The translations under genes and the position numbers were made by a program. Positions 5,902 to 41,630 of a stretch of DNA of 64,000 nt are shown here, piece after piece. This stretch comes from Vairimorpha necatrix. Taxonomy: Eukaryota. Position 1 is the stretch's first letter. Each line of letters begins with the position of its first letter. The stretch is from positions 558,001 to 622,000 of the forward strand of contig CP142726.1 in NCBI GenBank assembly GCA_036630325.1, read 5' to 3'. The notes under the pieces were generated by a model. It was not told the origin of the DNA. It saw nothing but the letters and a program-made list of their open reading frames with translations, and did no database searches.

Positions 5902-6085
5902 AATTGAAGTGCAAAAAAGAGAAGGAAGCATTAGCACTTGACTTAATTACATCTTTAAACAATAAAAATACTAAATAAAAATGTTATTGTATATAAAATT
6001 GAAATTTAAAAGAATAATTACTATGAAACTATATAGCTTCGAATAATTCGCCATGTATTGTATGCATTTTTTTGACTCAATAATC

Positions 6086-7124
6086 GGCGCTTCTCCGTTT
6101 TGCTGCCCCATTTTATTGGGGGCAGCAAAACGGGGAAAAGCAAAAATTTAATAATTTTTATTTTTTTATAAAAAGCCCCAAAAATGACAAAAATAAACTT
6201 TTATAATTATAGACATCCTTTGTTTTCCAGTCTTGCCTCATATAAAGACTACATGATAGAGACTGGAATTATTAATTTGATTAGACGATGTGGTTCTTGT
6301 GATCATATTGTTGCAAAGCTTACAATATTATTGGAAAGGGGAAAGGAAAGATTAGTTTATAGGTGTATGAGAGAAGAATGCAGGGCAAAAAAAAGCTTTT
6401 TACCTGGCATTAAATTATCATTTGAAATTTATCTTTTTGTTGTGTTCTTGGTCCTTTGTAACAGCAATTATAGATCAATTAAATGTTTAACGTGTGTGTC
6501 AAATGACACTATTTTAAAAAAAAGCTTAAATTGAGGGAATATATTAGAAAGCAATTGGAAACCGATTGCAAAATCGGTGGATCGGGAGTTCAAGTTGATG
6601 AAACTGTACTGTGTAGAAGAGGAACTTCTAGAGTTCCATCTAGAGCAGATGATGGAATTAAAGATACTGTATGGATTTGGGGGTTAATAGAAGCTGTAGA
6701 TAGAAAAAATATTTGCATAGTACAAGTTCCGGATCGAAAGATAAATACTTTAACAAATATAATTGAGATATAGTCTTACCGGGATCAGTTCTTATTTCGG
6801 ATGGCCATCCTAGTTATCCCGGTGTAGCAGCGAATCTAAAACTCAAACACATTATTGTAAATCATTCGATAGGATTTACTAATGAAGAAGGTTTTCATAC
6901 TAATAATATTGAGAATTTTTCGTCTATTATGCAATCTGAAATGACTAAACAGCACGAAGTAAAACGTGTGAATATCGAATCTTGGCTCGAAGAATTTACT
7001 TTTAGAAAATTTTTTTTAAATAATGTATTGAAGAATGAGGAAATGGATGTTTTTTTTGATTTTATTAAATTTATTTTTTTTTTGCTGCCCCATTTTTTTT
7101 GGGGCAGCAAAACGGAGAAGCACC
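6086..7124 (+). mobile_element. Merlin transposon, frameshifted
   Basis: TIRs GGCGCTTCTCCGTTTTGCTGCCCCA; 8-bp TSD CAATAATC; QVDET, SDGHPSY, VNHS and TNNIEN motifs. Confidence 0.95.
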
Positions 7125-7150
7125 CAATAATCTGTCTGGATTGTAGAACA

Positions 7151-8619
7151 GGTTAAATTGCGATGTTACCCCCTCCCCTAAAAAAATAAAAAAAAGGGAA
7201 AAACTAAAAAAGGAATAAAATTATACCCCTAAAATAAACATAAAGAATTTTAGAAAATTAATATATAAAAAAGAGGAATTATTTTTATTTCTTCTTAAAC
7301 AAAAAATTTTAAAGGTACCAATGTGCAATAAGTGCATGACCCCCATGACCTAAATTAGAAATAATTTGGACAAATATCGTTGTTACTTACGACGAAATAG
7401 GAGAAAATGCCCAAACAAAGGTAACATTTATAAAGAAAGCATTTTTAAAAGTTCTAGATTAGATATCGAAGATCTTTTAATTTTGCTGTGTGAATGGGTT
7501 AAAGGTGTAAGCAATGTTGTGGCTACTATCGAATGGGATATAGATAGTAGTACCGTATCTCTCTGGTGTACGCGGGCATAACGCCGTATTCTTATCCTAT
7601 TTCAACTACCTTCAAAACAAAACCACAGGAGGTTTAAATTGCGTAGTTGAAATAGACGAGACATTGCTTGTTAAAAGATATAACCATAACGGTAGAATGC
7701 TTTAATACCAAATTTGAGCTGTTGCTGGAGTTGTAAGAAGAGACGGCAATTCTTTTTTTTCGAAATTGTTGAAAATCGTTCAAGAACTACTCTTTTCGAT
7801 TTAATAAAACGAAAAATCACACTCAGATCTACAATTATTACTGATTGTTGGCGGGGTTATGAAGGGTTTTCGGAACTATGTCCGGATTGTAACTATTTAC
7901 ATTTAACTGTAAATCATAGCCAAAATTTTGTAAATTCAACAACAGGCGCCACACCCAAACAATTGAGAGAATGTGTTCTGTAATTAAAAGGGAATTGCGC
8001 AAAGAAGGAACAAGTTTTGGTTCTTGTGGTATAATGGATCATACCATATGAATGTTAAAAACCACATAATACTTTAACGCCGATGCTTCTTCGGAACGAT
8101 CAGTTATGGTCGACTATTATTGGTCAGCCAAATCTTATTTCACTTCTATTGGTTACCATGTATATAAATAAAGAAATTCCATGAACAACATGGTGCAACA
8201 TCAGAACGCAAACAAACACTCTTCCTTCTACAAATCAGATAAACAAAACTCTTTTCATAACAATAAACAATCCTTTCACTCTAACTCTTTTAACTCCGGT
8301 TTTCACTGCTCCCCAAACCGTAGCATCATTGAATGCTTCCTTGCCACAGGCAAGCTCCCCGGTAAACACGCCAGTTCTTTAATGAATCTAATTCGAAAAC
8401 TTTAAATAGCTCGTTTTAAGTATATTTATAAAGAATCACTACTTGAAAGAATGTTATGCTTTTTTGAAGCTCAAAATATATGGTTTGTAAATTACGATTT
8501 AGTCCCTGAATTTGATTTTGAATTAATTGAATAAATTTTAGTTTTGTCTTTTTTTTTTATTTTCCCCCCTTTTTTTATTTTTTTTTTTTTGGGGGGGGGG
8601 GCAACATCGCAACTTAACC
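7151..8619 (+). mobile_element. Merlin transposon, decayed, containing a solo LTR
   Basis: TIRs GGTTAA(A/G)TTGCGATGTT; 9-bp TSD TG(T/A)AGAACA; VEIDET, TDCWRGY and VNHS motifs. Confidence 0.9.
8025..8373 (+). mobile_element. Solo LTR (same family as 36522-36855)
   Basis: TG...CA ends; 5-bp TSD GTTCT; homologous to 36522-36855 and part of 62762-63468. Confidence 0.8.
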
Positions 8620-8814
8620 TGAAGAACATTATTTAATTTTTCTTATATTAATGGTACTTCTATTTTAAATAATTGGTTTATTATTAAAGAGTTGTTATGC
8701 AAAAATCTTCTCTTATAATAAACTAACAAATAAAAAAAAATTGGACGAAATAAAAAATGTTTACTCACTTGTATGATTGTAATGATTGATTTAAAAATAA
8801 TATTTATATGATGT

Positions 8815-9067
8815 TGTGGTATTTCTCAGCGGGACCTTCCCAGTACTGAGAAAACTCTCTACTATATTTGTTATAGTGTTTTGATTATGTTTAATATAAT
8901 TTTTACTGTGGTTAATATATTTATTGTTATTATGGTTCTTGTTCATTCTCTCTGAAATACTTGCCCCTAAACAAATTATTTTTATTTATACAAAAAATAA
9001 TTCTAGAAAATTCGTTGAGATTTTTGACATCTCAACAATTCAAAAATCCCATGTGGTTAATACCACA
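8815..9067. mobile_element. Solo LTR
   Basis: TGTGGT...ACCACA ends; 5-bp TSD GATGT; absent from the matching right-arm site (~36465). Confidence 0.85.
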
Positions 9068-9802
9068 GATGTATATTTGTTTATAGTTTTTTATATCATA
9101 AGGGCTTTGTTATTTTTGTATCCTTCCAGCTCCTGCTACTTTGTACTTCATTTTTGGAGTTCAAAAAAATGAAGTGAACACTCATAGATGAAAGATAAAG
9201 TATGAACATCTATAGCCTATATTTATTTATTTTATAATTTCTGTTTTTTGCAAGGGACAACTCGACCGACCGACCGAATGGTCTATTCTAAAAAATTATG
9301 TACTTTATAAGTTTATTAATTATCATATACAATACAATGCTAGGCAAAATAACGACAACTACAATTATCCTTTGAACTCAAGACTAAGAAAGGGCTTCTC
9401 GTTAAGAGACCAGACTCTCATATAAAAGGAAGAACATGCTCATCAGCACAATAAACTGATAAATTATATAGAACTGTGTTTGTCTAGAGGTAGCTCTTCT
9501 TTATGTCGTCAATTTGAATTTAAAGACGAATCAAATAGTAAATACGAAAATAGAATTCCATGTCTAATACAGAGAATTTGACTTTAATATCACAGGATCA
9601 AACGTTTAACGTATAGAAAAATAAAAATTAACAACCTCCCCATTAATTTCAATATTGGAATTACAAAGTTTGAGAATCCAGCGTAGGCCAATGTCTGGAA
9701 TAATTCACAAGGGGAAGAATATATGGAACCATGTTAGTTGGCGGTCGAGTTTTAAACACCCAGTCTAATAAATCATATTGAAACCAATAGCGGCATCATC
9801 AG

Positions 9803-10549
9803 TGTTGAGAATATATATTTAATAAATTTAACCCTTAACTTACAACTATCTTTAACATGGTGGAGAATAAAATTATTGAACCCAAACAAAAAAACAAAAG
9901 AAGAGGTTGTAAGTTACGCCGAGGCATGAGACGTAAAAAATCGCAGTATATGTTAGAATGGGGATGGTTGGTTGTCTAACAGAAGAGAAGGTATGACTTG
10001 CATCAGTCGAGGGGCCCGGATAGGTGGAGAATGAGAGTAGCTATGAAGAGCTATGGAGAAACAGTATTGACTGTAATAAGATCTGGCATAAGAGTTGTCG
10101 AGATTGAGTGTAGTGGTAATCCCACTATTCACATTAAAGCTATCGTGGCAAGATAGCTGAACCACAGTGTTCAAAAATCTAGAGAGATTTAAAAAGAGAA
10201 GAAAATTAAAATGAAAGTCTGTTGTAGTCGAAGAATGAGATAGACGGATAAAATCCAATTCCATTGTTGGAATACATGTGAAAAGAATAATCACATGCCC
10301 ATAGACTTATGTATTATAACAAGGAAAGAAACTACCGCAAAGACCAATACTAGAAGGGATAATAAGACGCGGTAGATAAAGCGCAGCATATGGCCAGTTA
10401 ACATAAAAATGCACTTTTATTTTTAGAGCGAAGTATTAAACTTAGGAAGTAGTAAAGATAATTACATCTCTCAGTTCTAAATTTAGCGCGGGCATGTTGA
10501 GAATATATATTTAATAAATTTAACCCTTAACTTACAATTAACTTTAACA
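9803..10549 (+). mobile_element. Non-autonomous miniature LTR element (TRIM-like), 55-bp LTRs
   Basis: LTRs 9803-9857 and 10495-10549 (TGTTGA...TTAACA, 2 mismatches); PBS TGGTGGAGAAT; TSD ATCAG/ACCAG; no pol motifs inside. Confidence 0.9.
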
Positions 10550-12956
10550 ACCAGAAACATGAGATTCGGAATTGCACAGGAGCTAGAAGATGTTAAGCAG
10601 TGCAACCACGCATACCTGGAAGATTATGTGAAGATCATATTTCAAAAGTTAGAGGGCTGCAGTTTTTCAAATAAATTTAATAAACAAAAAATCATGAGAA
10701 AATTTTCAGAGGTATTTTTTAAAGGACTGGTAGCAGACAGGGATGGAACAATGTAGGAATGGGGTTATTACACGGACCTTTCATGGGTTATTGCTTATCT
10801 AAAGAATTTAGAATTTACAATTTTTGTCCAATTAGGAAGACAAAAAAATAATGGGTATATACCATATGAAACAAGAAAAATTTGCAAATCAAGGAATTCT
10901 TATTGTGGTGTGCACAAGAGCTTTCTACAATACAAGTAATTGTAGACATCAGAACAATCACAAGGGTATTAAAGATAAATAGATACAATCCTAAGAATAA
11001 ACAAAAAAAACGGCTATACAGCTAGAAAGAATAAACGTCAGAAATAAGTGCAAATATTAGGAAGTTTAAACAGTAATAGTTACATATTGTTAATAGATAC
11101 TGGTTTACATTTAAATTTTCTAAGTGAACAAGTGGTCAATATGAATAATTATATAGTTGAGCTTTGTCAACCTTCCACTCTATATTTTGAATGTAAAAGG
11201 ACAAATAACTAACACTAAAGCCAGAATACGAATAAGTCTGTACAAATATTATCACGGGAATTGGTTACTTTACTATTATAAATTGTCCAAAGGATTCACT
11301 TCTAGCAGCTGAGTGGTTGAAACAGAATAAACCCCACATTTGACTTTACAAACCAATCACTTATTAACAGAAAAGAATAAATTCCCTTTATTAACGCGTT
11401 ATCAAACACGGATTAGATAGAATGAAAGATATAATAATTTATTTTTATGTCTTTCATTGAGGAAATTTATGTTTCTTACTTTGGAAATTATAAGAACCTC
11501 AATGATGTATTTTCCTCTATTAAATGTATGAAGCTCGATTAATGATTTTAAAAAGTCAATATAATTCGACATACATTCTAAAGTATAGCTTTAAAATATT
11601 TTGAAAGAGGAAGAAAGGAAGTTAAAAGATTAATCGACGAAGGCATTATAGAAAAGTCCAGACCATTTTTGCAAGTCCTGGTCATTCCATAGAAAAATCT
11701 TGTGAACTAAGACGGAGTAAAAATATATAAAGGGATAAAAAATCACAACGCAGATCACATTTTTTCAATACAAAATATAGGTGACTTAATACTGAGGCAT
11801 AGGAAGAAATACGTACATCTCGTAAATAGTTTAAAAACGGATTCAACCTGATCAAAATTCAGAAAGAAAGTAGAGATTTGACATCAATTATGATTATGGG
11901 AGTCCAACGTCGATACAAACGTGTATCTTTGGCATCAAACCGAGTCCAAAAAAATTTACAAGATACATTTCTGAAATATTACACGAAATGGATAACTGCT
12001 TCATAGACATGGCCGATATTGATTATTCACAAAAAACACCGGAAGCACATAGCAAATTAATCATAAATGAATGAACAAACTGAAAGAACAATTTTTTTTT
12101 AAAAAATTTAGACAAGTAACTTTATGAAAAATAACATCGCGTACTAGAAAATACTATCAATGCCCATGGTGCGTTTGCAACTAATAAATCGATTTATAAT
12201 TGAATATTGGCCAAAAGCTAGAAAATCGAAACAAATTACAAGAACTATTATGGACAATTGGATTGAACAGAAAATTCCTACCAAAATTGTCAACAAAATT
12301 ACTTCCATCAACAAACATGCTGCAACAAGAAGTAAAAACGGAATTACCCCTGCAAATTAAAACATTATCAAGGATATAAGCGAATTTATTATAATTCAAG
12401 CAAAATTAATCTGCTTAAATTGCACAAAGTCATTCATCTTAAAATGTGATGCTTCTGATATAGAGATAGGTTGTGTACTGTATCAAGAGGTTGAACCAAT
12501 TGGATATTTATTAGACTATTTGAGAAAGTTGAACTAAATTATATTATTTTTAAAAAAGGAATATCTTGAAATACTTTTATCACTGACATACTTTAAAGGT
12601 TTCTTCAAGGAAATTTCTAGAAGTCGGAAAAGATAGTAAACATTGCTTACACGGGATGAAACTAGAAACTGCAAGAGTGTATCGTTAGAAGCTAATTCTA
12701 TCTGCGTTTAGCCATAAATTGATATCCGTAGAAGCCAAGAAAATATAAGAGCAGATAATTTATCGAGATGCTTCACAATTTTTACAAACAATGGAAATGG
12801 CTACATAAAAATGGTTAAAATACAATAATAAGTGATAAAAATTAAAGGATAAATAAGTAAAAAGGGGAAGATTTTTATGCAACCAAACAAAGTAAAACAC
12901 TGCTGTATAACTACATCATGAACGAGGCCTCAGAGGAATTTCAACAATGTACAATA

Positions 12957-13970
12957 GGCTAAAGTTAGCTTTAGGACGCAAATTTCGATATAGGGGTTTT
13001 TTGTTTTTTTTGCCCTTTTTAAAAAAAATGGAAGAAAGAATAACTTTAAGAGCAGAATTAGAAACAGTGTATGAAAATTTAATTACTAAAAAACAAATTC
13101 AGATTTGCAGTGTGTGTGTGATAATAGAATGAGGTTCATGAGAAAACATAGTTGTGTTTTAATTTGTACCTGGAAAGATTGTAAGAAGCAAACATCAGTA
13201 TGGACGAATACTCTTTTTGAAAACTCAAACTCGATCATATCACAATTTTGCAGGTACTAAATTTGTGAATTCTTGGCCAGTCTCGTGAATTTATTTGCCA
13301 AATTCTCTGTTGTTCAAAACCTTCGATATCTTTTTCAATTGAAAAAATTAAAGGAATTAAACCTCTTTGCTAAATATTTATCATCTTTAAACAAGATATG
13401 AGAAGATATCATTGTTGAAATGGATGAAACTAAAATTGGAAAAAAATAAATTTAACAGAGGAAAATCAGTGAAGGGTTTTATGGTTTCGGCATAATAGAA
13501 CGTACTATCGAACGTAATATTGTGGTTCTATATATCAAAAAAGAGATAAAGAAACTCTTACAGATTTCTTATTAAAATTCGTTAATACAAAAAGCACTAT
13601 ATATAGTGATATGTGGAGGGCTTATCATTCTTTGGGCACCTTATTTAAAAAAATTATATGGTAAACCACTCGTTAAACTTTCGAGATCCAAATACTGGAG
13701 TACACACCAATACCATTGAAGGTAATTAAAGTTCACTCAAAAATTTCATACCTAACAGAAATAGATCAAAAAACGTACGGAATCTTTATTTACTTAGGTA
13801 TATGCTCCAGAAAAATTCATCTAATTCTGTTTCGATGCAATATTAAATTTATTGTTTAATTTTAAATTTTGTTCCTTCCTCTACATTTTCTTTCTTCCAT
13901 TTTTTTAAAAAAAGGGCCAAAAAATCAAAAAACCCTACATCGAAATTTGCGTCCTAAGCTAACTTTAGCC
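12957..13970 (+). mobile_element. Merlin transposon, decayed
   Basis: Long TIRs GGCTAAAGTTAGC..; VEMDET, SDMWRAY, VNHS and HTNTIEGN motifs. Confidence 0.9.
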
Positions 13971-15120
13971 CAATAGGCTAAAGAATTTTTCTTGATCACA
14001 TCTAATCCATAAGATAAAACAATTAGTAAAAATTGCAGAAAATGAAAAACTTTACACAATTTTTTGTCAAAAGGAAGATAGGAGCTCATATGTCGGCCGA
14101 AAACAAGCTTTAAAGAATCAACTCGGATATATATGGTTTATTTAGTGTAGGAAATTTGGGGACACAAGTAACATAATAAAAGATTAATTACTAATTTAAC
14201 AGACATTAAAATAGTATGCACGAAACTATAGTAAGCATTAAAATGGAAAGAAGAAATTATACGGCGCAGTCGGCAATTGAAATCAATTATAAAATTCAAG
14301 CCCATAAGCTAATACTAGACAACGGAATGCTGTTATAAACAAGCATGTTGAACATTATCTAAAGAAGAATGGATAAGGCCCTTACATATTATAACAAATA
14401 CCCTAAGTTCAAATGATATATCATAGTCAGTAAAATGCACTCTTACATTCATAAAAATAATCGTGAAAGCTAAAATTTAATTACGCCTTCGAGATGTGCG
14501 AATAAATGTTCAACAATAACTTAATAGATCAATAAAATGTTTCCTAATGCTACGCTAAACGTCAAAGAGTACTAAATCTACTAGAGAGAGCAATACAAAT
14601 GCGTAATAAAAAACATTAACTACTAGCAAATTCAGGCAACGTCAGCAAAGTGTCTGTAAAAAATTAGCGGCCATGAAGTCAGACTCAAAGTAATTAAAAA
14701 AAAGAAAAATAACGCAGTTAGGATCTAAAGAAAAATAAGTAAGGGTTAAATGGATTCTTAAGTGGATACGCGTTAAGGGCATAAAACTTCAGATAGGTTA
14801 AAGTGGTTTTATCAACACCACAATTTAGTTTTTTTATCTAATTTATGATTTCTATTTAAAAAGGGCCCATTCGACCGGTCGAATGGTCTATTCCAAGAAT
14901 TAAGTATTTAAATTTATTTATTATTTACCCCATACAATACAATGCTAGACAAAGAAATAGACAACTAAAATTACCTTTGGGATTTAAGACCACGGAAAGG
15001 CCTCGACCAGACCAGACCCCCCCCCAAAAAAAAAAAACGAAAGAAAAAATGCACCTTAACCCAAAAAACGATTAACTTAATAAAACTGTTGTAGACTACG
15101 ATTCTACAACATTTAATTTT

Positions 15121-16235
15121 GGTACATGACCGTTTGGAATCCGCTTTGAAAATTTAAATAACCCCCCTTTCAAAAAATGGCAAGATTGACAAAAAACAAA
15201 TTTTGTTGAAGAAGATGAGCTTTTTAGTAGTGAAATGTTTTTAAACAGGAAAAAAATGAAAATTTTATTTTGGAAACATTTTATGATGCTGAGACAGCGT
15301 GTATCTTTCTGGCACGCAGTTCATTAATAAAAAACAACTTTTTTTGTACTGTATGCAGCTCTGAAAGGCAAATGAAATTTATTAGAAGAATAAGATTATT
15401 AGACAAATATGTTTGGAATTGCACAAAACCTTGTACGGCTTCTAAATCTGTCAGAAAAGACTCTATTTTTGGAAATACCAAATTAAGTTTTTATAAAATT
15501 ATAAGAATGATATATAAGTATATCAAAAGAGTTTCCTTTCTCGATATAGCAAATGATCTTGAGCTAGACAGAAATACCGTAAGTACATGTGGTATGCTCT
15601 GCAGAGATCGCATAATCGAGGAAGTGACCAATAATAGTCAGAGGTTAGGAGGTCGTGATGAATTCGGCATTCCTAAAGTAGTGGAGTTCGACGAGAGTCT
15701 ATTCTTTCGTGCCAAATATAATCGTGGCAATCATACCATAGGTCAGTGGTATGTAGGAGGAGTGGAAAGAGGTTTTAAAAAGGCCTTTCTCGTCCCTGTA
15801 GCTAGTAGAAATACTGCTACTCTTCTTGAGGTAATACAATATAATGTATTGCCTGGTTCTATTGTGATCAATGAAGAGCATATGATGCTGCATTTAGACA
15901 AATCACAGGGATGGAGCATTAAACTGTGAATCACACTATCAATTTCGTAAATCCTAATGATCCGAGACACATACTCAACAAATTGAAGGATTTTGGTCTC
16001 TTTCGAAGAGAGATATTCGGTCTAGACATGGAATAAACCAGGACGAGCACTATGAGTATCTTTTACAGTTTCTATGGTCTTATTAAATACCAAAAAACCA
16101 AAGAATTAATCGACTTCTTTCATTATTCAAAATAAATCGTTAAGTCTCTTTTTTTATAATTTTTTTTATTTTTCCTTTTTTAAAATTTTCAAAGAGGTTC
16201 ATTTTCCCAAAGCGGGTTCCAAACGGTCATGTACC
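15121..16235 (+). mobile_element. Merlin transposon, left-arm specific
   Basis: TIRs GGTACATGACCGTTTGGAA; 8-bp TSD TTAATTTT; ORF 15270-15929 with VEFDES..KYNRG; empty site at ~32852-32860. Confidence 0.95.
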
Positions 16236-20233: not shown

Positions 20234-20639
20234 ACAGGAGCTATTCTATGCATTGTGAGACTCTGTAGTAAAAAATTTTACAAGCACTATAGACTTGAAA
20301 TTTGATTAGATAATTTCTTAACAAGTACTCAAAATTGTCGCGAGTTCTTGACTATGTAAAGGCAGTTTTGCAGACTAAACACTCCATCCCAAAATTTCTT
20401 TATTCAAATAAAACGCAAATTTTCAATCATGTAATTTTGAATATAAAATCAGCATATTTTGACATCTTTCACGCAAAAAAAAACATTTTATTCTATAAAG
20501 TGTACTCTAATGCGTCTTTAATAGTGGTCTCATTGCCATCGAAACCATGTCTTTATTAAAAGGGGGTTCCGTTTTAAGTCTAACTTTTGCACCTCTATAG
20601 TCCTACTTTTCATTTAAGTTCTTTATTTTTTTAAAAAAT

Positions 20640-25350: not shown

Positions 25351-28300
25351 TGTGGTATCCCACATGTCAAACATATCATTTTTGACATTTCTTGATTTGT
25401 TTACCCTGTAAACAAACAAAAAAAAAACTATAAAAGAAAATTCCATACTTAGGGGTATGGAAGATAAGAGAAATAAACTATTTACTCAAAACTTATCTTT
25501 ATTGGAGTTGTACTTCCGCAGGAGGTACGACATATTGAATTCAATAAGAGAGTACAAATATAATGAACTCCCACCCACGCGAGGAAGAGAAATCGCAGGG
25601 CACAACTCCAAAATTCAAGAAACAAAAGTAGTCACCATAAGAATTAAGACAGGTGAAGTGGATCTAGGAATCACTAAGAATGTAGAACTGATCAACGACA
25701 TATTCGAAATCGATCTACTAGGATGGTTCAAAAAGATCGAAGAAATTTTTCAAAGGAACCAATGGAATGAAGAAACTAAAAGGCTCTTTTTATACGATCT
25801 TATAGAAGATCAGATTATAGATAAAACCAAATTGAAAGATGATTATGAAGAGAACAAAAAATACATCATGTCCAAAGTATTTTCACAGAAAAGGGTCGAG
25901 AACTTAATAGCAGAACTGAGTAATCTCAAACAGACTGACCACATCTTCTTCGACGACTATGTAAACGAAATCATGAATCGATTAACTATCTACAGTAAAG
26001 TATCTAACTGTAGCATGAAAGAATACGAACGAAGATCAAAGGAATCTCTATACAGAGGACTAGGCTTAGAAACAGTAAGATATCTCGAGGAACAAAACCT
26101 CGAAACACTACCTGAAATCATACCAGCTCTAAAAAGAATTGAAGAAAACATAATAACAAGATTTAACATACCGAGAAAGCTAAATAACACCTCAGGTATA
26201 AGATTCATGAAAAAATGGTGTAAAGTCCACAAAACTTTGGGACATACAACGAGAGACTGCGGGCAAAGCAATGAAACAAATCGATCGAATATGAGCAAAG
26301 TAAAACACGAAAAATTCAACAACTACAAAAAGACAGTAGTTCCCGATACCAATCAAAATTTAAAAAATACAACGAGAAAGACTTCAGAGCCCAGGGAAAA
26401 TAAAAACTCTTTAAACTATGTTATTTTAGAAAATCCTAACATTGTCGAACAACTCGATATCCCACTCATAATCAACACAAAACATGAGTCAACAGGAACT
26501 ATAGACTGCGGAGCAGGATTAAACTTTATAAAAGCAGACCTCGTAGAACAATGGAACATCACCACTAGAGAAAACAAAGAGATCCAGGTAATGTTCGGTA
26601 ATAAATCTAGTGAAAAAACTAACACTACAATAGAACTCGACTTAAAATTAAAGGATCAAAACGAGACATGCAAGATTGAATTTTACTTATTAAAAAACCT
26701 ACCAGTCAATATTATACTTGGTAGAGATTTCATATCGAGAAACGATATTATATTAGATTTTACAAGAAAGAAAATAATCTGGAACAACGCAACCGTAAAT
26801 ATGAAAACAAATGCAGAAGAAACAGAATTCGAAAAACCCCCAGGAAAAATACTTATCACTAAGGAAGAAGAAAGACTTAGGGAAATTATAGATAATTATA
26901 AAAGAGAAATCAAAGAAAATTGTCCTATAAACACAGATCACGTTAAATTACAAGTTTCAAACAACGACATAAAATGTAAGAAAATTAACTATGCCGTACC
27001 ATCAAACTTTAAAGAAGATGCAATAGCCGAAATACAACGACTTATAACCGCTGACATAATAGAAGAATGTAATGAAAGATACACAAGTCCCGCATTTTTT
27101 AAGAAAAAGAAAAATGGGAAAATGAGATTAATAGTAGACTATAGAGAAATAAATAACTTTGTTGAAGATGAAGTGGAAATAATACCCAAAATGGACGATA
27201 TTATTTATCAACTTGGTAAAAGCGAAGTAATAAGCAAATTAGACTTGACAAACGGGTTTAATCAATTACTCCTAGCAAAAGATAGCAGAAAATGGACAGC
27301 ATTTTCGATATTTGGTAAAACATTCAGGTACAAAAGACTTCCTTTTGGATTAAAAAATGGACCAAAAGCTTTTCAGAAAATCATGAACAAAATACTTTTC
27401 GGGATAAATAACATTTCAGTATATATAGACGACATAATAATTGCCACAAAGGACTACGAATCACACCTCAATACGCTTAAAGAACTGTTCACAAGATTGA
27501 AACATTACAATGTAAATGTAAATTTCGCAAAATCAGAGTTTTGCACAAAGGACACCGAAATCCTAGGAACAAGAATTTTTAACGGAAAAATGTACCCTCT
27601 CACGAAAGACTGTAAACTAACAGAAAACATGAAATGCCACACTAAAAAAGACCTGCAAAAAATAATTGGCATATTTAATTGGTACAGAAAATACATTCCA
27701 AACTTAAGTCTAGAAATTCTAAGCTTAACCGAAAAGCTAAAAGGAAACGAAAAAAAAGTCAAGCTAACAAAAGAAGACAATCTAATAATAAACAAATTAA
27801 TAAGTACACTAAAGAACAATAGCCACCTAGTACTGCCAGACTACAGTAAAAAATTTACACTACATTGCGACGCCTCTGAACTAGGAATGGGCGCAGTACT
27901 ATCACAAGAACACGGAATAATTTTAAATATAAGCATGAAATTTAATAAAACAGAAAGAAATTATACAATAGTGGAAAAAGAATACTTTGCAATAGTATAC
28001 GCGATGGATAAGTGCAGAAACATAGTACTCGGAAATTACGTCGAAATCTATACAGATAACAGGAATTGTCTATTTAAAAGCAAAATAAGCAGAAGAATAG
28101 AAAGATGGGACGCGATGATGATAGAGCACAATTACTGCATAAAACAAATCGCAGGAGAGAATAACTCAGTAGCTGACTACCTATCAAGATGTTTTAAAAT
28201 AGAAAATGTCAGACATGGAAATAACCTTACGAATATAATAGAACAATATGTAGAAAAAATATCAGACGATAAATCCGGAAAGGAAAACTGGGAAAGAAAT

Positions 28301-29450
28301 AAAGATGACAAAATAATGATCAAAAACACCGAAGCAGAAAATTTTCTAACAAAAATACATGAACTAGCCGGCCACCCAGGAATCGTAGTATTAAACAAGA
28401 ATCTCTCTCCTTTCTACAACATAATTGGATTAAAGAACAAAATAATAGCAATAACAAAAAATTGCAGAATGTGTAACTTAAATAAGAAAGAGAAAGTCAA
28501 AACTCAGAAATTACAGATCGAATCTGATAAAATTTACGGAACAATAGCCATGGACATATTTGGACCATTTGAACTTGAAAATTTTGAACATGATACAATC
28601 CATTATAAGGCTTATTACCTTTGCATAACAGACGTTTACTCAAGAATTTCAAGGGTATACCTTCTATATAACATAACGGAAGATACAATAATAAAATGTA
28701 TAGATAAATGGATACAAGAATTTCAACAGCCAGAAAAAATTATCATGGACAATGGCACACAATTTACCGGAGAAAAACTCAGAGAAAAATATGAGAAAAG
28801 TAGAGGAATTAAACTCGTTAACACTCCAATATACCATCCACAAAGCAACGGAATGGCAGAAAGGCAAAACAGTATAATAGCTGAATGTCTAAGGATAAAC
28901 AAGCTAAATAACATCAACGACATAACAAATAAAATTAACATTAAACTTAACGTAAATTACAAAAGAACTATTGGATGTTCTCCATTCGAATTAGAGAAAC
29001 AATACAGCTTTTTTGACCCATTCAGACGACAAAGCAACCTAAAGGAACCAAAATACAAATCAGTTCCAGCCACACTGAACCAGAATAACGATAAAAAATT
29101 AAAAATAAATGATAAAGTATTTGTAAGAGATTTCAAAGCTGGGAAAATGGATGAACAATATAAAGGACCCTGTACGATCAAAGAGGTTGGGAAGAAAGGA
29201 AACTGGGTTAAAGTAGAAGAAGGAGGCAACTGGATCCACATAAAGGACATTAAAAGAAGAGGGTAGGATGTGGTATCCCACATGTCAAACATATCATTTT
29301 TGACATTTCTTGATTTGTTTACCCTGTAAACAAACAAAAAAAAAACTATAAAAGAAAATTCCATACTTAGGGGTATGGAAGATAAGAGAAATAAACTATT
29401 TACTCAAAACTTATCTTTATTGGAGTTGTACTTCCGCAGGAGGTACGACA
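25351..29450 (+). mobile_element. Intact, young Ty3/Gypsy LTR retrotransposon
   Basis: Identical 182-bp LTRs (25351-25532, 29269-29450); TSD ATATC; PPT AAAAGAAGAGGGTAGGA; empty site in left arm at 19362-19366. Confidence 0.98.
25457..29266 (+). CDS. Gag-Pol polyprotein, 1269 aa (CHHC knuckle, protease, RT, RNase H, integrase)
   Basis: CKVHKTLGHTTRDC, IDCGAG, LPFGLKNGP..YIDD, CDAS, HHCC, MDNGTQF..SNGMAER and GPC motifs in one open frame. Confidence 0.97.
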   Translation: MEDKRNKLFTQNLSLLELYFRRRYDILNSIREYKYNELPPTRGREIAGHNSKIQETKVVTIRIKTGEVDLGITKNVELINDIFEIDLLGWFKKIEEIFQRNQWNEETKRLFLYDLIEDQIIDKTKLKDDYEENKKYIMSKVFSQKRVENLIAELSNLKQTDHIFFDDYVNEIMNRLTIYSKVSNCSMKEYERRSKESLYRGLGLETVRYLEEQNLETLPEIIPALKRIEENIITRFNIPRKLNNTSGIRFMKKWCKVHKTLGHTTRDCGQSNETNRSNMSKVKHEKFNNYKKTVVPDTNQNLKNTTRKTSEPRENKNSLNYVILENPNIVEQLDIPLIINTKHESTGTIDCGAGLNFIKADLVEQWNITTRENKEIQVMFGNKSSEKTNTTIELDLKLKDQNETCKIEFYLLKNLPVNIILGRDFISRNDIILDFTRKKIIWNNATVNMKTNAEETEFEKPPGKILITKEEERLREIIDNYKREIKENCPINTDHVKLQVSNNDIKCKKINYAVPSNFKEDAIAEIQRLITADIIEECNERYTSPAFFKKKKNGKMRLIVDYREINNFVEDEVEIIPKMDDIIYQLGKSEVISKLDLTNGFNQLLLAKDSRKWTAFSIFGKTFRYKRLPFGLKNGPKAFQKIMNKILFGINNISVYIDDIIIATKDYESHLNTLKELFTRLKHYNVNVNFAKSEFCTKDTEILGTRIFNGKMYPLTKDCKLTENMKCHTKKDLQKIIGIFNWYRKYIPNLSLEILSLTEKLKGNEKKVKLTKEDNLIINKLISTLKNNSHLVLPDYSKKFTLHCDASELGMGAVLSQEHGIILNISMKFNKTERNYTIVEKEYFAIVYAMDKCRNIVLGNYVEIYTDNRNCLFKSKISRRIERWDAMMIEHNYCIKQIAGENNSVADYLSRCFKIENVRHGNNLTNIIEQYVEKISDDKSGKENWERNKDDKIMIKNTEAENFLTKIHELAGHPGIVVLNKNLSPFYNIIGLKNKIIAITKNCRMCNLNKKEKVKTQKLQIESDKIYGTIAMDIFGPFELENFEHDTIHYKAYYLCITDVYSRISRVYLLYNITEDTIIKCIDKWIQEFQQPEKIIMDNGTQFTGEKLREKYEKSRGIKLVNTPIYHPQSNGMAERQNSIIAECLRINKLNNINDITNKINIKLNVNYKRTIGCSPFELEKQYSFFDPFRRQSNLKEPKYKSVPATLNQNNDKKLKINDKVFVRDFKAGKMDEQYKGPCTIKEVGKKGNWVKVEEGGNWIHIKDIKRRG

Positions 29451-29976
29451 ATATCTAAATCTTAATTCAATGACATTTATATATACATATAAGTTTTATG
29501 TTGTTTCTAGAGTTTCCTCTTCCTTTCCTTTTTTTAAAAAGGGGCTATTTTTTAAGAAATTTGACCCCTGTAATTTTTTTTACACTACACTGATTTTTGA
29601 CGCTCTTATTTTAGATTTATGCCTTTGCATTGTCCCTACAGTATCATGTTTTTATTATATATAACAATTATTTATAAATTTTACATATTGTCTATTATGT
29701 ATTTATCTTGTTTATAACATATAATTATTGTTGAAAAGAGTAGATGGGAAAGGACAAAATTACATATTTATTGAGAAACTTTTCTTTTTATATCTGTGTT
29801 TGAGACAATGATTTGTGATAACCAGGTCGGTCTGGACTAGTTTGTAACGAAAAGTTTGATATATGATAAAGAGTAATGATTTGTAACTAGGGTTAGAAAA
29901 ATTATAATTTACTTTAAAAAATAAACATTACGAACAGTCTTTAATATGGTGTATAAATATTATAGGACAATGTTTA

Positions 29977-30248
29977 TGTCATGTCCTCAAAACCATGACA
30001 TCTGTGTTGTACTGTGTTAAAACTTTAATCAGTAAAACACTGCTCCGAACGAATAGTCAAAGGCGATGATCTCTAAAGATCAGACATGAAACGTTATGTT
30101 TCATAAATAATATAAATAGTCCGAAAAGGTTAGAAAACACTGAGCATGAAGAATAACACTTAAAACAGATCAAACATAAATAAATGTAAAATAATACAAA
30201 TATTTTAGAAATGTATTATAAAACGGAGATATTACTATGTATATGTCA
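29977..30248. mobile_element. Solo LTR, right-arm specific
   Basis: TG...CA ends; TSD GTTTA; empty site at ~18842-18847. Confidence 0.85.
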
Positions 30249-30965
30249 GTTTACTTTTCTAGATTTAGTAATACAATAAGATACCGTTGACCAATAAAAA
30301 TATGATCAATAAAAAAAATTAAATGATCAATTTATTATCAATCATAGAAAATTACTAAAAATATTTGTAACTTTAAAATGGGCACTAAGTCGTGTTTCAT
30401 AAAATAGAAATTTTTTTTTAAAAAAATTTTAATATTGCTTTTATATTTTGTTATTATATCAAAACAGTTCTTGCGAAACAAAGAATTTTTTATAATTTAA
30501 ATGACTTCCTAGATTGAATGATCCAGAATGGATCTTTATGAAGCCCCTGATATAGTTAAAAGAGAATTTTCAAGGTCAGTAGAATTAAATTCATTTGCAT
30601 GTATAATTATATGGCATAAGTAAAACATCACAAAATATACTTTTAGTATGTTTTACAACAATCAATATTAGTTTATATAATATCTACATTGTGAAGAGTG
30701 AAAAAAACGAATTCTTATAATGAATAAATTATATATCAGAGTATTAATCAAAAAGTTGATTTTTTGCATTAAATTTATGTTTTAACACACAAGCATTAAA
30801 TGTATGATAAAAGCATAAAAGTTATAATATTGCATATTTAACACTTATAAAAAATACTAAAATTTTTAATGTGATTGGTATTTAAAAAATATGCCTTACT
30901 AATATATAAGGAGTGACCCCTTTTCTCCTTTTTTACATAAAAATAAAAAAAATATTGAAAATACT

Positions 30966-31813
30966 ATGTCTAGTAGAGAATCAGACAAATGGATGAAATC
31001 AGATAATCTGGAGAAACGGCAGACGATGTTTTTGCTAAAGACAGATCTAGTTCTGATTGTGATATTAGAAATGAAAAAAATGTCAATAAGTCTTATCAAA
31101 ACCATGAAAATGGTAACCAGAAAAGGGCTCCACCATACGGCTATTCACATGAAGGAAGCCAAAAAACAGGTCTAGATTACTTAAGAGAAATAGCAGAAGA
31201 AGAAAGTTCTAAACTTAAAAAAAGCAAAGTGCCTTTAGAATATTTAGAAGGAGCACAAAAAGAATATAATAAGCTAAAAGATTCTTGGGGCGGAAAAGAT
31301 ATATTAGAAGAAGAATGGATTAAGATTCGAGGCAAAATTATACAAAAATTGAGAAAAATGAAAATAGATCAAATAAGTAGGGATCTAACCAGTTTTAGAT
31401 AACAAAATACTTCTGCCATACAGATAAGCATGTCTCGGAAGAAAAACCAAGAAAGAAAAGGGAAGGTGTAGCACGTTTAGAAGACGATGTCTCATTAGAC
31501 AGTGTAGACGAGGATAACCAGGCAGAATTGGCAACAACAGAGGAAAAATTTATAAGAAGCTATTCAGAATTCCCAAACAGCATGTTTGCTACCGTAGATA
31601 GAAATGGAGTAAAAATGTTTTGTTGTGCGAAAGCCGATTGCGATGTGGAGTTTCGAACAATAAGTCAAATAAAAAGACACTACTTAATTCACACTGATCT
31701 TAAACCAATTAAATGTAAATGATCAAAATATAAAAAGCTATTTGGAAGACAAGACAATATGCTTTACCATTATCGTAATAATTGCAAATATAGAAAAATA
31801 GGCAATTCAATAA
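30966..31813 (+). pseudogene. C2H2 zinc-finger protein pseudogene, right copy
   Basis: Near-identical reverse complement of 17282-18129; shares the stops checked near the finger region. Confidence 0.8.
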
Positions 31814-33176
31814 TACACAATGAAGAGTTGACTCCAGTCAATAAGCTCTATTTTTTCAAATAAAATTATATACTTATATCATATGTTACACAGTAAACAT
31901 AATATTGAATGCGGTACAGAATAAAGTTGGTTTTTAAGCATAAAACAGGCTTGACATGAAAATTGTTGTAATATATTTTAATATATTCACAAGTTCAATT
32001 GACGTCAACTAAGACTAAAGTAGATTTAACAACTATTGATCCTGTGCAACATTTATCTATCAGTGAAGGTATTTATACACACATTAACGATCTTAGAAGA
32101 AATGGCAAACATCAGATATCTATAAAAGGCTGGTAATATGTCAATCTCATATATTTCAGGTACACAACTTAGAAATATTCTTATGAATTTTGAAAGGTAT
32201 ATAATAACTCGAAGACTATATGAAAACAGTCTTTAATACCATTTAATAATTTAATCCTTATATAATGATATTAGAACTGGGCATTACCCTTAGAATAAAA
32301 AGACTTTTTCATTAAGACTCTAAAATTACAAATATTATCACAATTCAATAAATTTTCACAACTTTACTATAGATGTAAACAGGTTGATTGGTTATGCAAT
32401 CGGTATAATATGCAAGTCCTTTAATCCGCGTAATACTTTAAAGTTACACATTTGTTTTTTTTTTATCACTTTAATTAAATTTCCTCCCAAGAAGGTCGTC
32501 ATAATTAATAATTATGACGAGGAGATTGAACAATATTAATAGTTATTTTCCAATGTAAAAAATATTATAATTATTTTGACGTAATTATAATGCCAACTCA
32601 GGAAAGATGAAGTTTTTGTGGTATCCCGGGGAAGCCCTCCCGGTAATAAAGTACCACTCTAAAATAGAATTAATATATTTATTTTTATTCTTAAATGCCC
32701 CTTTGGACTCTCTAATAGCTCTTTTGTCGCTATCCCCAAACACTCCTTGTGTTCGTCTCTCCATCATCTTTCTGTACCCTTCCTTTCTAGAATTTTATTT
32801 ATAGTAAAAAAAATTCTAGAAAATTCAATGATTGATTTGACAGGGGGAAATAAAATTAAATGTTGTAGAATCGTAGTCTACAACAGTTTTATTAAGTTAA
32901 TCGTTTTTGGGGTTGTTGTGCATTTTTCCTTTCGTTTTTTTAGGGGGTCTGGTCTTGGTCGAGGCCTTTCCGTGGTCTTAAATCCCAAAGGTAATTTTAG
33001 TTGTTTATTTCTTTGTCTAGCATTGTATTGTATGGGGTAAATAATAAATAAATTTAAATACTTAATTTTTGGAATAGACCATTCGACCGGTCGAATGGGC
33101 CCTTTTAAAAATAGAAATCATAAATTAGATAAAAAATAATTTTGTGGTGTTTATAATACCACTTTAACTTCTCGAA

Positions 33177-34916
33177 GGGTTGGTGGAAAAGTCCGCCAAA
33201 ATATAAAAGAAAATTTGAAAAAAAATAGCCCTTAAAAATGAATTTCGAAACGGACAAACAGCATCAGGAAGAAACACCATAAACTAGAATCACAAATTTA
33301 TAATAATATAATACGAATAAATAATTATTTGACATATAACAAATGTATTAACCCTTCATATACAATTTTTAGACATTAAACTATTATTTGGATTTTTATA
33401 AAATTATGTTCATCCAATAATTTTTCGATACCCTCTTAATATGGAAAATGAAAGAAGATTACAAGAACAGAAAAAAAGACCTGTTGATATAAAAGACATA
33501 AAAAATAAACATATGAAATTATACAAAGGATACAAATACTATATGAATACACTGGGGCTTCTTTTATAAAATGGTCTTGTTTTTTAAAAAATTGTAATAG
33601 AAGTATACGCATGAACATTATAACAAATGAAGTATGTAATTATCAAGATCATAATCATGAGGAATTAAATAATTCACAAATTAAAAGCTTATTTCTAAAT
33701 GAAGATATAAAAAGAGATAGCCTCACAAGCAGAAAAACTAAGAATGAAATTGTATGTGCGACAACATCAATGCTTGATGATTCAGAAAGACAGTTACTTC
33801 CAAGTATACGTAACATAAAGAAAAGAATTAGAAATATTCAATATTTAACTCAAAATTTTAGCTATTCTAATAATTATGATATTCCAAATGAGCTACTAAT
33901 GACACGATCTGGACTTAAATTTGTACAGTATGATAATTATTTTAGCACCAAAGAGAGAATAATAGCATGCTGGTCTGATAAAAATTTAAACAACGCCATG
34001 AATAAGAAAGTCTTTGCAGTTGATGGGACATTTTACTCGTCGCCTCTAGCCCTTTTCAACTTTTGTAGTATTTTTTGTAGATGAATATACTTACATTCCT
34101 TTTGCTTATTTTCTATTACCTAATAAAAAATTTGAATCGTATGTGGAAGCTTTTAAAATGCTATTTAATTTAGCAAATGTGAGAAAAATGGAAAATATGA
34201 TAATAGATGGTGAGTTGACTATACATAAGGCATTGCATAGTGTATATCCAGGCACTAGAATAAGATTTTGTGTCTTTCATTATTCACAGGCGGTTTTTAA
34301 AAAATTTAAATCTTTGGGATTTTCTAAATTATACAAGGATGATAGGATTATAAGATTTTATATCAAATGTTTGCTTTGTTCAATATTCATTATTGAAGAA
34401 AAAAAAATATATTACATTTAAATATTTAGTTAGGTTTATATGTCGCGATTATAGTGGACATGCAATTAAAGATTTTCTTAACTATTATATAACGAATTGG
34501 TTAAATAAAGACTTTTTTCGTTATAACGATATGAAAGAAAGAATAGAATATGATATACCATTTACAAATAATTGAGCGGAAGGTTTTAATTCTTCATTAA
34601 AAAGAGAATTGAGATCACCACATCCAAGTTTAACTGAGCTTTTAATGTGTTTTAGAATCGTGATTTTTTAAATTAAATATACAAACATAATATTAAAAGC
34701 AAGAAAAACAATTCTATAACAAAGACCAGACATTCAAAAATAATAATAAAAATAGAAGATTTAAAAGACAATTGTTTGGAAGTTTTAAAAGAAATTACAT
34801 CTCTATATAACTTTAAATATGATATTTTACAATAAATTTGATCATTTTGATTTCTCCTTTTAAGGGCTATTTTTTTCAAATTTTCTTTTCCATTTTGGCG
34901 GACTTTTCTCCTTACG
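33177..34916 (+). mobile_element. MULE transposon (second family), fragmented
   Basis: TIRs ..GAAAAGTCCGCCAAAAT..GCCCTTAAAA; VDGTF, IIDGE, FCVFHY and TNN*AEGFN motifs. Confidence 0.9.
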
Positions 34917-36345
34917 GTATTATTTCTTTTTGTTTATTCTTATGATTGTATCTATTATTCTTTAGTACCTTTATAATTGTTCTAATGTCAACAATCTCTT
35001 TTATTGTTGAAAACTCTTGTGCACACTACAATAAGAATTCCTTGATTTTCCAAATTTTTCTTGTTTCATATGGTATATTCCCATTATCCTTTTGTCTTCC
35101 TAATTGGACAAAAATTGTAAATTCTAAATTCTTTAGATGGGCAATTATTTATGAAAATACCATGTAATAACCTCATTCCTGCATTGTTCCAACCCTGTCT
35201 GCTACCAGTCCTTTAAAAAATACCTCTGAAAATTTTCTCATGATTTTTTGTTTAGTAAATTTTTTTGGAAAACTGTAGACCTCTAACTTTTGAAAAATGA
35301 ATTCACATAATCTTCCATGTATGCGTGGTTGTACTGCTTAACATCTTTGAGCTCCTGTGCAATTCCGAATCTCATGTTTCTGGGGGTAGGAAATTTCTGG
35401 TAATGCCGCTCTTGATTTCAAATATGATTTATTAGACTTTGCGTTTAAAAACTGATCGCCAACTAACATAGTTCCATAATTTTTTTCCCTCTGTAAATTA
35501 TTCAAGACATTGTTCTATGCTAGATGATCAAATTTTTGTTATTCCAATATTAAATTTAATGGTTTTTATTTTTATAAACATTAAACGTCTGCTCCTGTGA
35601 TATTAGGGTCGAATTCTCTGTATTCGAACATGTAATTTCTTTTTTCTATCTTACAGAACTTTCCGGGGCATAAGATCCACCAATAGAAAAGACCATGGAT
35701 CTTATCTATTGATATAAAATATTTGAAATTCTTTTAAAAAATTTTTGAAACTTTACCCCATGAAAAAAAAAATCTTACACGCTAAAAGAAAAAGAAAGGA
35801 ATAGAAAAATTGCATGAAAACGGTGGCAACATTAGTATGACTACTTTCAAGTTGCAGATTACTTAGAAAAATAAAGGGTAATTTTTTTATATATAATTTT
35901 TTACCATTTGGGTATGGGGGGATCTCTTCTACTAGTATAAATTTTCCCATTTAAAAAGTCGTAAAATTAGACTTTTGGGATGGATCTTATAGCCCGGAAA
36001 CCCTGGTATTATTTAATTAGCCTTTAAATCCAAAATGACGCAATCCAGAGGAGCTACCTCTGAACAAATACACCCTATATAGTTTATCAGTTTATTAAGC
36101 TTAGGCCACGTTCTTCCTTTGTTACGGAAGTCTGGTCCCTGGCCGAAAAGCCCTTTCTTGGTCTTTCATTCCAAGGGGAATTGTAGTTGTCTGTTTCTTT
36201 GTCTAGCATTGTCTTGCATAGGATAAATAATTAATTTATTTAAATGCTTGATTTTTTGAATGGAACATTTGATCGGTTGAATTGTCCCTTGCAAAATCAG
36301 AAATTATAAAATAAATATAGACTAAAGATGTACATACTTTATCTT
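34917..36345 (-). mobile_element. Right-arm remnant (5' LTR and gag) of the decayed Gypsy; its 3' LTR is at ~32860-33172
   Basis: Reverse complement of ~9190-11010 without the miniature LTR element. Confidence 0.75.
35654..36006 (+). mobile_element. MITE/internal-deletion derivative of the pogo-like family
   Basis: TIRs ..TTTCCGGG..ATAAGATCC; TA flanks; both ends homologous to 54695-56222; absent from left arm (~9540). Confidence 0.85.
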
Positions 36346-36521
36346 TCCTCCGAGGGTGTTCACTTCTATTTTTCAAACCCCCCAAATCAAGTACAGAATA
36401 GCATGAGCTGGAAAGAGACAAAAATTACTAAGCTTTTATGATATAAAAAACAATAAACGAATATAGATTTATATACAAAAAAAATTTCAATCAAGTTATA
36501 ACAATCATATAAACTAGTAAG

Positions 36522-36855
36522 TGGCGTTTTTAACGGGGAGCTGCCGGTGGCAAGGAAGTATTCAATGATGCTACGGGTTAAGTGTTGTGAAACCCAGAGT
36601 TTAGATAGTTGGAAGGAAAAGATTGATTTGAAAAGAGTTTGGCTTATCTAAATCATAGAAGGAAGAGTGTTTGTTAGTGTTCGAGTGATGTAATATGCCG
36701 GAGATGGATTTTCTTTTTTATAGTAAGAGTAACCAATAGAAGCAAATGTGATATAACTAATTAAAAATAGCTGCATCATTGATCGTTCCGGCAAAGAATC
36801 GGCGTTAGTTTCCATTGGTTAAATTAGAAAATGTGGTGTAATACATTATACCACA
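36522..36855 (-). mobile_element. Solo LTR (same family as 8025-8373)
   Basis: TG...CA ends; TSD GTAAG; absent from left arm (~8760). Confidence 0.82.
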
Positions 36856-37525
36856 GTAAGCATTTTTTACCTTTCCGATTTTTTTATTTGTTTATTATAA
36901 GAAATGATTTTTTAAAGAAAATCTTCTTAAATAATAAACCAAAAAAAAATAGAAGTATCATAAATATACGAAAATTTAGGCAAATGTTTTACAATCCAGA
37001 CAGATTTTTTAATCAAAAAAAGGAAAATATTTTAATGTTTAAAGAAGCAGGTTTTGCGAGTGCTAATGCTTGCTTCTCCTTTTTGCGCTTCTTTTTAGGG
37101 TCTAAAACAAAGTAAACACCTTCTGAAGAGGGCGTTTTGGGTCCCAACAAAAAAATCGGAAAAGTAAAAAAATGATTACTAATCTATATGGTTGTAATAG
37201 CTTATTTTTAAGTATAAGTTTGTATATAAATGTATATTTATTTATTGCTTTTAAAATCATAAGTACTTGAAAATTCCGTCTCCTTCTAGCTCCTGCTTTT
37301 TGAAATTCATTTATGGGTTCGAAAAAATGAAATGAACAACCTTGTAGCGTGAGGTTTCGGATCTCACCTTTTAAATTTATTAAAGCTATTTAAAGTATCT
37401 CCATTGAGCAGAAAAAGTATAGTAAAAAAGGATATCATACGAAAACAAAGCAAAAATGATCATAATTTTATATTCAACAAAACATTTTTTTTACATTAGG
37501 AAATTTTTTACTGCTTTAAACACAG

Positions 37526-41577: not shown

Positions 41578-41630
41578 AAATGGTTTCTACTTTATATGAT
41601 GCAGTTGGATCAACTCAGATGATGAAAATG

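Follow-up and report, generated by a model that had tools for sequence, protein, structure and literature searches.

A palindrome of about 14 kb per arm around a decayed Tc1 element in the genome of Vairimorpha necatrix

A 64,000-nucleotide stretch of the Vairimorpha necatrix genome (assembly GCA_036630325.1, contig CP142726.1, positions 558,001 to 622,000 of the forward strand) contains a large palindrome whose axis is a decayed transposon of the Tc1 type. The whole of this stretch will be called the window, and all positions are counted from its first letter. It is a genuine inverted duplication, old and heavily altered since, and each of its arms is about 14 kb long. The two arms meet the transposon exactly at its TA target dinucleotides, they have diverged to very different degrees along their length, and each has received insertions that the other lacks. 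The coordinates of all features are collected in Table 1.

The symmetry axis and its exact boundaries

Read directly from the window, the centre has the sequence ...CACTTGCGGCTT-TA-CAGGG...(Tc1)...CCTTG-TA-AAGCCGCAAGTG..., and the left flank of the Tc1 (up to 21702) and its right flank (from 23028) are reverse complements of each other. Mirror symmetry begins at the TA itself on both sides, and 38 of 40 flanking bases are mirrored. Five other bounded elements of the window (three elements with terminal inverted repeats (TIRs), one pair of units resembling MITEs (miniature inverted-repeat transposable elements) and one long terminal repeat (LTR) element) served as a control. Their flanks are mirrored at only 8 to 14 of 40 bases, as is expected of ordinary insertions, whose flanks are unrelated. 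An initial annotation of this DNA had described a palindrome with a Tc1 at its axis and a symmetry that starts at the TA/TIR junction. Both features are real: collinear inverted blastn matches lie on either side of the element and the symmetry starts where it was said to.

If the Tc1 and one TA are taken out, the centre becomes a perfect palindrome with zero leftover loop. Both junctions have the form tip-TA-flank with no extra bases and are footprint-free; an ordinary insertion would look alike. The inverted arms flank a single-copy spacer (approximately 21944 to 22939) that is without a partner, and the borders between spacer and arms carry short inverted sequences, which are the TIRs of the Tc1. 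The flanks are mirrored from the TA outwards, yet the 17-nucleotide tips of the Tc1 are not, and the predicted fold of the element lies in another register. In the minimum-energy fold of the present Tc1 the right TIR pairs with the inner left TIR rather than tip to tip, which leaves the 3' end unpaired.

The element is not an intact, potentially autonomous copy. Compared over about 1 kb with P0001, a JGI protein named 'transposase', its reading frame changes three times and meets two in-frame stops. The amino acid identity with this protein is 55 to 79% over three frames (tblastn), and one piece of the element (22031-22417) gives a Pfam DDE_3 match (E=1.9e-8). The motifs FLDETGF, FDNASFHH and NPIEEFF are still visible. 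The spacing is roughly of the DD34E type: a count by hand, made across one frameshift, puts about 34 residues from the second D to the E.

Each Tc1 end carries CA..GG next to the TA, 17 nucleotides ahead of the first 22-bp unit of its TIR. A motif scan for this unit placed seven of eight matches in the left TIR, compared with 0.92 expected by chance, and the inner block of the right TIR matches 21863-21943 with 92.7% identity over 82 nucleotides. The tips themselves (the outermost 17 nucleotides) are alike at only 7 of 17 positions: the tip specific to the right end is CAAGGTTTGAATTTCTA, followed by two units, and the reverse complement of the left end is CAGGGATATAGTCGTTT, followed by 8.7 units. 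The right tip could also be the left tip minus one or two 22-bp units; the alignment allows such a loss but does not make it compelling.

Two public sequencing runs, X1 and X2 (small shares, 0.31 and 0.13), were available as short Logan contigs (the longest of 6030 nucleotides) and were compared with positions 13500-33499. In both, contig depth is greater over the Tc1 than over the sequence flanking it, and some of the contigs are forms with internal deletions. This suggests that the Tc1 belongs to a multi-copy family with short derivatives, contig depth being only a rough guide.

Extent, divergence and later insertions of the arms

The matches between the arms come from a blastn comparison of the window with its reverse strand. 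They are collinear except for a small match (8634-8765 with 36978-36855) that breaks the order. The initial annotation had traced the arms to 5902 and 37097. Beyond 8075 and 36978, however, the trace is weak, with a 62-nucleotide match at 79% and a 149-nucleotide match at 64%, and we place the solid limits at these two positions. On both sides the arms end in dense transposon DNA.

Divergence between the arms was calculated segment by segment as the Kimura distance (K2P). It ranges from 0.013 to 0.27, so that the simple one-step copy first proposed gives way to a structure that is old and mosaic. In the inner arm there are 21 gap events across 1704 aligned nucleotides. Mutation resembling repeat-induced point mutation was considered as a source of the differences and rejected because transitions do not dominate in the inner arm (54, against 74 transversions).

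Within these diverged arms lies a tract of near-identity with sharp edges, about 3.2 kb in length, whose flanks are 92.5 to 93.2% identical. Over positions 16978-17977 the arms differ at only 2 positions per 1000 nucleotides, compared with approximately 75 at the flanking rate. The simplest reading of this pattern is that the tract results from recent arm-to-arm gene conversion within an older palindrome.

At least four transposons have entered single arms, and three insertions have left clean empty sites in the opposite arm. The intact Ty3/gypsy element of the right arm has one open reading frame (ORF) of 1284 amino acids with protease, reverse transcriptase, RNase H and integrase domains. 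Its LTRs are 99.5% identical over 186 nucleotides, and it is apparently young. The corresponding empty site in the left arm (19361-19366) reads ...TATATATATC-TAAATC.... In run X1, a contig of 717 nucleotides follows the right arm as far as 29451, its other 161 nucleotides being unplaced there, and the gypsy insertion may be absent in that run.

The 1115-bp TIR element of the left arm likewise has a clean empty site in the right arm. We assign it tentatively to the Merlin/IS1595-like elements: its pairwise match to the IS1595-type ORF of the window has E=1e-5, and its match to Pfam PF12762 (E=0.14) is below the cut-off. The 278-bp insertion of the right arm has a high contig depth in run X1. 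The fourth insertion, a TIR-bounded element, has a direct match of 73 to 74% identity to 58050-59591; here 1.7 kb of the right arm stand opposite 3.8 kb of unrelated left-arm DNA. A 750-bp stretch is also unpaired. The transposase gene of about 1 kb, which had been described as the only unpaired sequence, is thus one of several. Insertions present in one arm, with clean empty sites in the other, show that the arms are true duplicates with separate later histories, and argue against an artefact of fold-back reads.

The only host-type sequence within the arms is a C2H2 zinc-finger pseudogene. Its closest named relative is P0002, a V. necatrix zinc finger C2H2 protein of 281 amino acids, with an amino acid identity of 85 to 92%. 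Against this protein, the reading frame of the pseudogene changes near residues 16 and 152, and stops stand at the positions of Q147 and R254; in the second finger a Cys-to-Tyr change has removed a zinc-binding Cys. All these lesions are identical in both arms. What had been taken for the duplication of a host gene is therefore the presence of two copies of a dead one, and no gain of a working copy is shown.

Pieces specific to each arm occur in contigs of X1 and X2. Since these runs may include the source sample, such contigs are not independent proof of the two arms. Contig depth is zero over 16835-18168, which is best explained by the assignment of contigs that fit in two places to the other arm. 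Near 16800, where arm identity steps up sharply from about 93% to some 99%, the same runs place the boundary of a very high-copy repeat (16236-16834 and 32260-32859), whose depth in X1 is in the thousands.

Table 1. Features of the palindrome. Percentages are identities between the arms; K2P segments are given in left-arm coordinates. TSD, target site duplication; TRF, Tandem Repeats Finder.
Feature	Position	Strand	Size or partner	Details and basis
Left TA next to Tc1	21703-21704			Target duplication, or half of a central TA; direct reading
Right TA next to Tc1	23026-23027			Direct reading
Decayed Tc1-type element	21705-23025	-	1321 bp	CAGGG.../...CCTTG ends adjoining TA
Transposase remnant (unpaired spacer of the palindrome)	21954-22967	-		tblastn with P0001; ORF pieces
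Left TIR of Tc1	21705-21943	+		17-nt tip, 8.7 copies of 22-bp unit (TAGTGCCATGTTTGAA core), inner block; TRF
Right TIR of Tc1	22940-23025	-		17-nt tip, 2.0 units of 22 bp, inner block; TRF, motif scan
Left arm, with left-only insertions	8075-21702		23028-36978	Collinear reverse-strand blastn matches
Right arm, with right-only insertions	23028-36978		Left arm	Collinear reverse-strand blastn matches
Inverted match	19361-21752		25351-22978	92.8%, 2404 nt
Inverted match	18842-19366		29976-29451	97.9%
Inverted match	16236-18865		32859-30230	97.2%
Inverted match	14787-15120		33177-32852	91.7%
Inverted match	10551-11010		35383-34923	90%
Inverted matches	9538-9802, 9072-9540, 8075-8376		35397-36807	75-79%
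Divergence segment	8075-8376			K2P 0.27
Divergence segment	9069-9540			K2P 0.24
Divergence segment	9546-9802			K2P 0.19
Divergence segment	10551-11010			K2P 0.10
Divergence segment	14787-15120			K2P 0.056
Divergence segment	16236-16799			K2P 0.071
Divergence segment	16800-19968			K2P 0.013-0.019
Divergence segment	19969-21701			K2P 0.079
High-identity tract, left arm	16800-19968		About 3.2 kb; partner 24744-25345 + 29451-32295	98.1-98.7%
Ty3/gypsy LTR retrotransposon, intact, right arm only	25351-29450	+	4.1 kb	TSD ATATC
TIR element, left arm only	15121-16235	+	1115 bp	28-nt TIRs GGTACATGACCGTTTGGAA..., 8-bp TSD TTAATTTT
278-bp insertion, right arm only	29971-30248		278 bp	Alignment gap and junction sequences; no clear TSD
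TIR-bounded element, right arm only	33178-34920	+		Ends GGAAAAGTCCGCCAAAAT; 18 of 20 terminal bases inverted matches
C2H2 zinc-finger pseudogene, left copy	17298-18130	-		tblastn with P0002
C2H2 zinc-finger pseudogene, right copy	~30965-31797	+		tblastn with P0002

The window as a whole is AT-rich (30.4% G+C), uses the standard code and is packed with transposons, including Ty3/gypsy elements, FLYWCH-MULE elements, remnants of the IS1595/ISXO2 type and MITE-like units. Scans of the window for tRNA genes and Rfam families found none, and a protein atlas searched with the gypsy polyprotein yielded no hint of taxonomy. V. necatrix is reported to be tetraploid, with 50% repeats, 28.3% G+C, and both Dicer and Argonaute (PMC10759460).

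Two copies of a FLYWCH zinc-finger and MULE transposase unit (288-1964 and 41630-46651) are mirrored about the palindrome and 90 to 94% alike. A palindrome that reaches out to 288 and 46651 was considered and rejected: the gypsy elements that lie between these copies and the arms are only 32 to 36% identical in amino acid sequence and represent different families, and the FLYWCH-MULE copies are therefore not counted in the palindrome. For the same reason, we judge their near-equal distance from its centre to be a coincidence. The right-hand copy contains a second gypsy element (42571-45903; gag and pol ORFs, 42616-45632; TSD GTATG), whose terminal direct repeats are unusually short (52 bp) and 100% identical and whose empty site is found at 1026-1030 in the left-hand copy. 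Other features of the window are MITE-like units of about 1 kb at 12957-13970 (85-nucleotide TIRs, 92%) and 61771-62728 (74-nucleotide perfect TIRs), a tandem repeat at 52230-52532 (148-bp unit, 2.0 copies, 96% matches), and transposase remnants of the IS1595/ISXO2 type (Merlin-like) at 4819-5304 and 50137-50697 (Pfam PF12762, E=1.2e-13 and 5.1e-16).

Possible origins of the palindrome

With slightly less than even confidence, we prefer the view that the Tc1 was already in place and that the duplication was made at its ends. Every step of this origin is inferred from the present state of the locus. Among its versions we favour a misjoin between sister chromatids as the best fit to the sequence. 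In such an aberrant transposition, the transposase would act on two sister chromatids, cutting the right end of the Tc1 in the first and the left end in the second. The right end would then be rejoined to the left donor flank of the sister, giving the order flank-TA-Tc1-TA-inverted flank with both natural tips and no footprint. Because both Tc1 ends look natural, the junction of right tip, TA and inverted flank is a normal junction between transposon and donor, as rejoining with the wrong partner would give. Tc1/mariner transposases make staggered cuts. The overhang of the right end would pair with that of the left donor flank, and religation would yield a perfect tip-TA-flank junction. The by-product would be a reciprocal palindrome of the other flank. 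The more specific proposal that the locus is a fossil of a sister-chromatid misjoin made by a Tc1/mariner transposase, and that the reciprocal palindrome may survive elsewhere, we regard as doubtful.

The palindromic chromosome would next have been stabilised by a second rearrangement in the surrounding repeats. Later the arms diverged, the 3.2-kb tract (and perhaps the whole inner half) would have been homogenised by arm-to-arm gene conversion, and the transposons found in single arms entered them. The decay of the Tc1 is compatible with its residence there during the divergence of the arms, and arm ends in dense transposon DNA are what repeat-mediated stabilisation of a dicentric would give (PMC10622511).

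There are precedents for the individual steps. Transposition that aberrantly engages the ends of two sister chromatids, or of separate molecules, is documented for Ac/Ds and P elements and leads to breakage-fusion-bridge cycles (PMC3952818; bioRxiv 10.1101/2020.01.07.897926), and single-ended transposition has been reported for the mariner element Mos1 (PMC3952818). An alternative version, in which the Tc1 is again present first, would be fold-back or template switching guided by the TIRs. Fold-back inverted duplications have a single-copy spacer bordered by short inverted sequences (PMC3907307). In yeast, such events can start from inverted repeats that have kilobase-scale spacers and a heterology of up to 25% (PMC10164571); a heterologous flap is trimmed before synthesis, and the dicentric product is stabilised through repeats (PMC10622511).

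A number of observations weigh against a duplication made at the Tc1 ends, or against one version of it. For the sister-chromatid version, Sleeping Beauty, a member of the Tc1 family, showed no single-ended events in one assay (PMC3952818). For the fold-back version, trimming of the flap should yield mirror-image tips, and the tips are alike at 7 of 17 positions; the pairing of the right TIR with the inner left TIR, which leaves the 3' end free, also speaks against it but is not decisive. Later expansion of the left array could account for the register of the fold, not for the unlike tips. The fold-back primed by the TIRs that the initial annotation had proposed is thus not shown, and its simplest form fits poorly. 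K2P is 0.19 to 0.27 in the outer third of the arms compared with mostly 0.06 to 0.10 in the inner part, and a single event fits this only with added gene conversion or with a separate history of the outer part. The palindrome may be of still greater age, with an earlier homogenisation of its inner half, or the outer part may have had a partly separate past. Among the contigs listed for X1 and X2, none spans the centre or a junction between Tc1 and flank. A protein-pattern scan of a metagenome collection with a piece of the Tc1 gave 189 pattern matches, none of which was confirmed, and the exact 26-nucleotide TIR pattern had no match in the collection.

Finally, the same bases are predicted if the palindrome came first, and no feature of the sequence distinguishes the two orders of events. 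In that case, the Tc1 would have made an ordinary insertion at the central TA of an older spacer-less palindrome (...GCGGCTT-TA-AAGCCGC...), duplicating the TA and supplying a stabilising spacer. This is a live rival, although we consider it rather unlikely. It predicts exactly the sequence found, with a TA on both sides, two unlike natural tips and, without the Tc1 and one TA, a perfect central palindrome with no loop. Insertion sites of the Tc1 family tend to be locally palindromic and bendable (PMC3952818, on Sleeping Beauty), and the central TA is of this kind. Survivorship would act in the same direction: long palindromes without a spacer are fragile, and the survivors should have a central interruption (PMC7999016). 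The cost of this explanation is a perfectly spacer-less precursor, whereas fold-back events normally leave a spacer (PMC3907307), together with a Tc1 strike on one particular TA among very many. Moreover, none of the five control elements has mirrored flanks, and the window shows no wider tendency of elements to insert into palindromes. The interpretation given in the initial annotation is, overall, partly supported.

An assembly artefact appears very improbable. The contig would have followed one haplotype outwards and, by way of the inverted repeats of the Tc1, returned on a second, or would have been built from fold-back chimeric reads, and the differences between the arms would be allelic differences of a polyploid genome. 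A tetraploid genome with 50% repeats (PMC10759460) leaves some room for such a path, the mosaic of 99% and 92% tracts and the one-arm transposon insertions also resemble diverged haplotypes, and a contig across the centre is missing among those listed. However, the right arm is joined to the right-end tip CAAGGTTTGAATTTCTA with two units and not to CAGGGATATAGTCGTTT with 8.7 units. Had the path come back on a second haplotype, it would have reached the complement of a left end, so reads with the observed right-end junction must exist. Chimeric fold-back reads would give near-identical arms rather than arms with different insertions, and the TIR block common to both ends (about 82 nucleotides, 93%) is not long enough to confuse assembly from long reads.

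It is scarcely credible that the locus is a giant mobile element of the foldback or long-TIR type, which the initial annotation had likewise called less likely, with the arms as its own terminal repeats and the Tc1 as a passenger, for although long inverted arms round a short centre match the foldback outline, the inner arms have a low contig depth (0.6 to 6 against 17 to 20 in X2, and 1.5 to 66 against 100 to 960 in X1, for the Tc1 and other transposons, these depths being rough), are not built of tandem subrepeats and hold a host-derived pseudogene and nested older transposons, and their outer ends are blurred, with no common terminus or target duplication found.

Comparison with known systems

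The structure shares its long inverted arms and short centre with the Foldback (FB) transposons. Unlike these, its arms are low-copy, lack subrepeats and defined termini, and contain a pseudogene and nested transposons. Primate Y chromosomes carry palindromes whose large arms are kept alike by arm-to-arm gene conversion. Like them, the present palindrome has long inverted arms on either side of a spacer and one tract in which identity is much higher than around it; it differs in that its arms are 75 to 93% identical outside the 3.2-kb tract. Since the duplicated gene is dead, there is no sign here of maintenance by selection.

A closer likeness is with the fold-back inverted duplications of human (PMC3907307) and yeast (PMC10622511, PMC10164571), in which arms surround a single-copy spacer with short inverted-repeat borders and a second event is needed to stabilise the product. 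In the present case the inverted repeats are transposon TIRs and the arm boundary lies exactly at the TA target. The two repeat tips differ, and the flap trimming of the yeast pathway would not leave such tips (PMC10622511). The event is also ancient and has been overlaid by gene conversion and transposon insertions. Chromosome breakage and alternative transposition by maize Ac/Ds and hybrid insertion of P elements (PMC3952818, citing English et al. 1995; bioRxiv 10.1101/2020.01.07.897926) give sister fusions and inverted duplications with the element at the junction, as we propose here. The documented cases concern hAT and P elements, often with two nearby copies, whereas the event proposed here is reconstructed from its product.

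In the open-access literature we found no description of a Tc1-centred or a microsporidian palindrome, which is not proof of absence. Neither this type of structure nor its candidate mechanisms are new. The novelty lies in a natural, long-lived and Tc1-centred example from a genome of microsporidian type, whose boundaries are exact to the base and whose subsequent history can be read. The position of these boundaries, exactly at the target TA of a transposon, raises a concrete question: did the transposon make the palindrome, or did it land in one? If a misjoin is the correct explanation, this would be the first natural record of breakage and fusion of the McClintock type for the Tc1/mariner superfamily. 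With Dicer and Argonaute present, a hairpin laden with transposons could in that case also feed RNA interference against the resident elements. What is known of palindromes seeded by inverted repeats comes mainly from experiments in yeast, from tumours and from patients, in which such palindromes are recent. The survival of the V. necatrix palindrome shows the later life of such a structure: divergence of the arms, a gene-conversion tract and insertions into one arm or the other.

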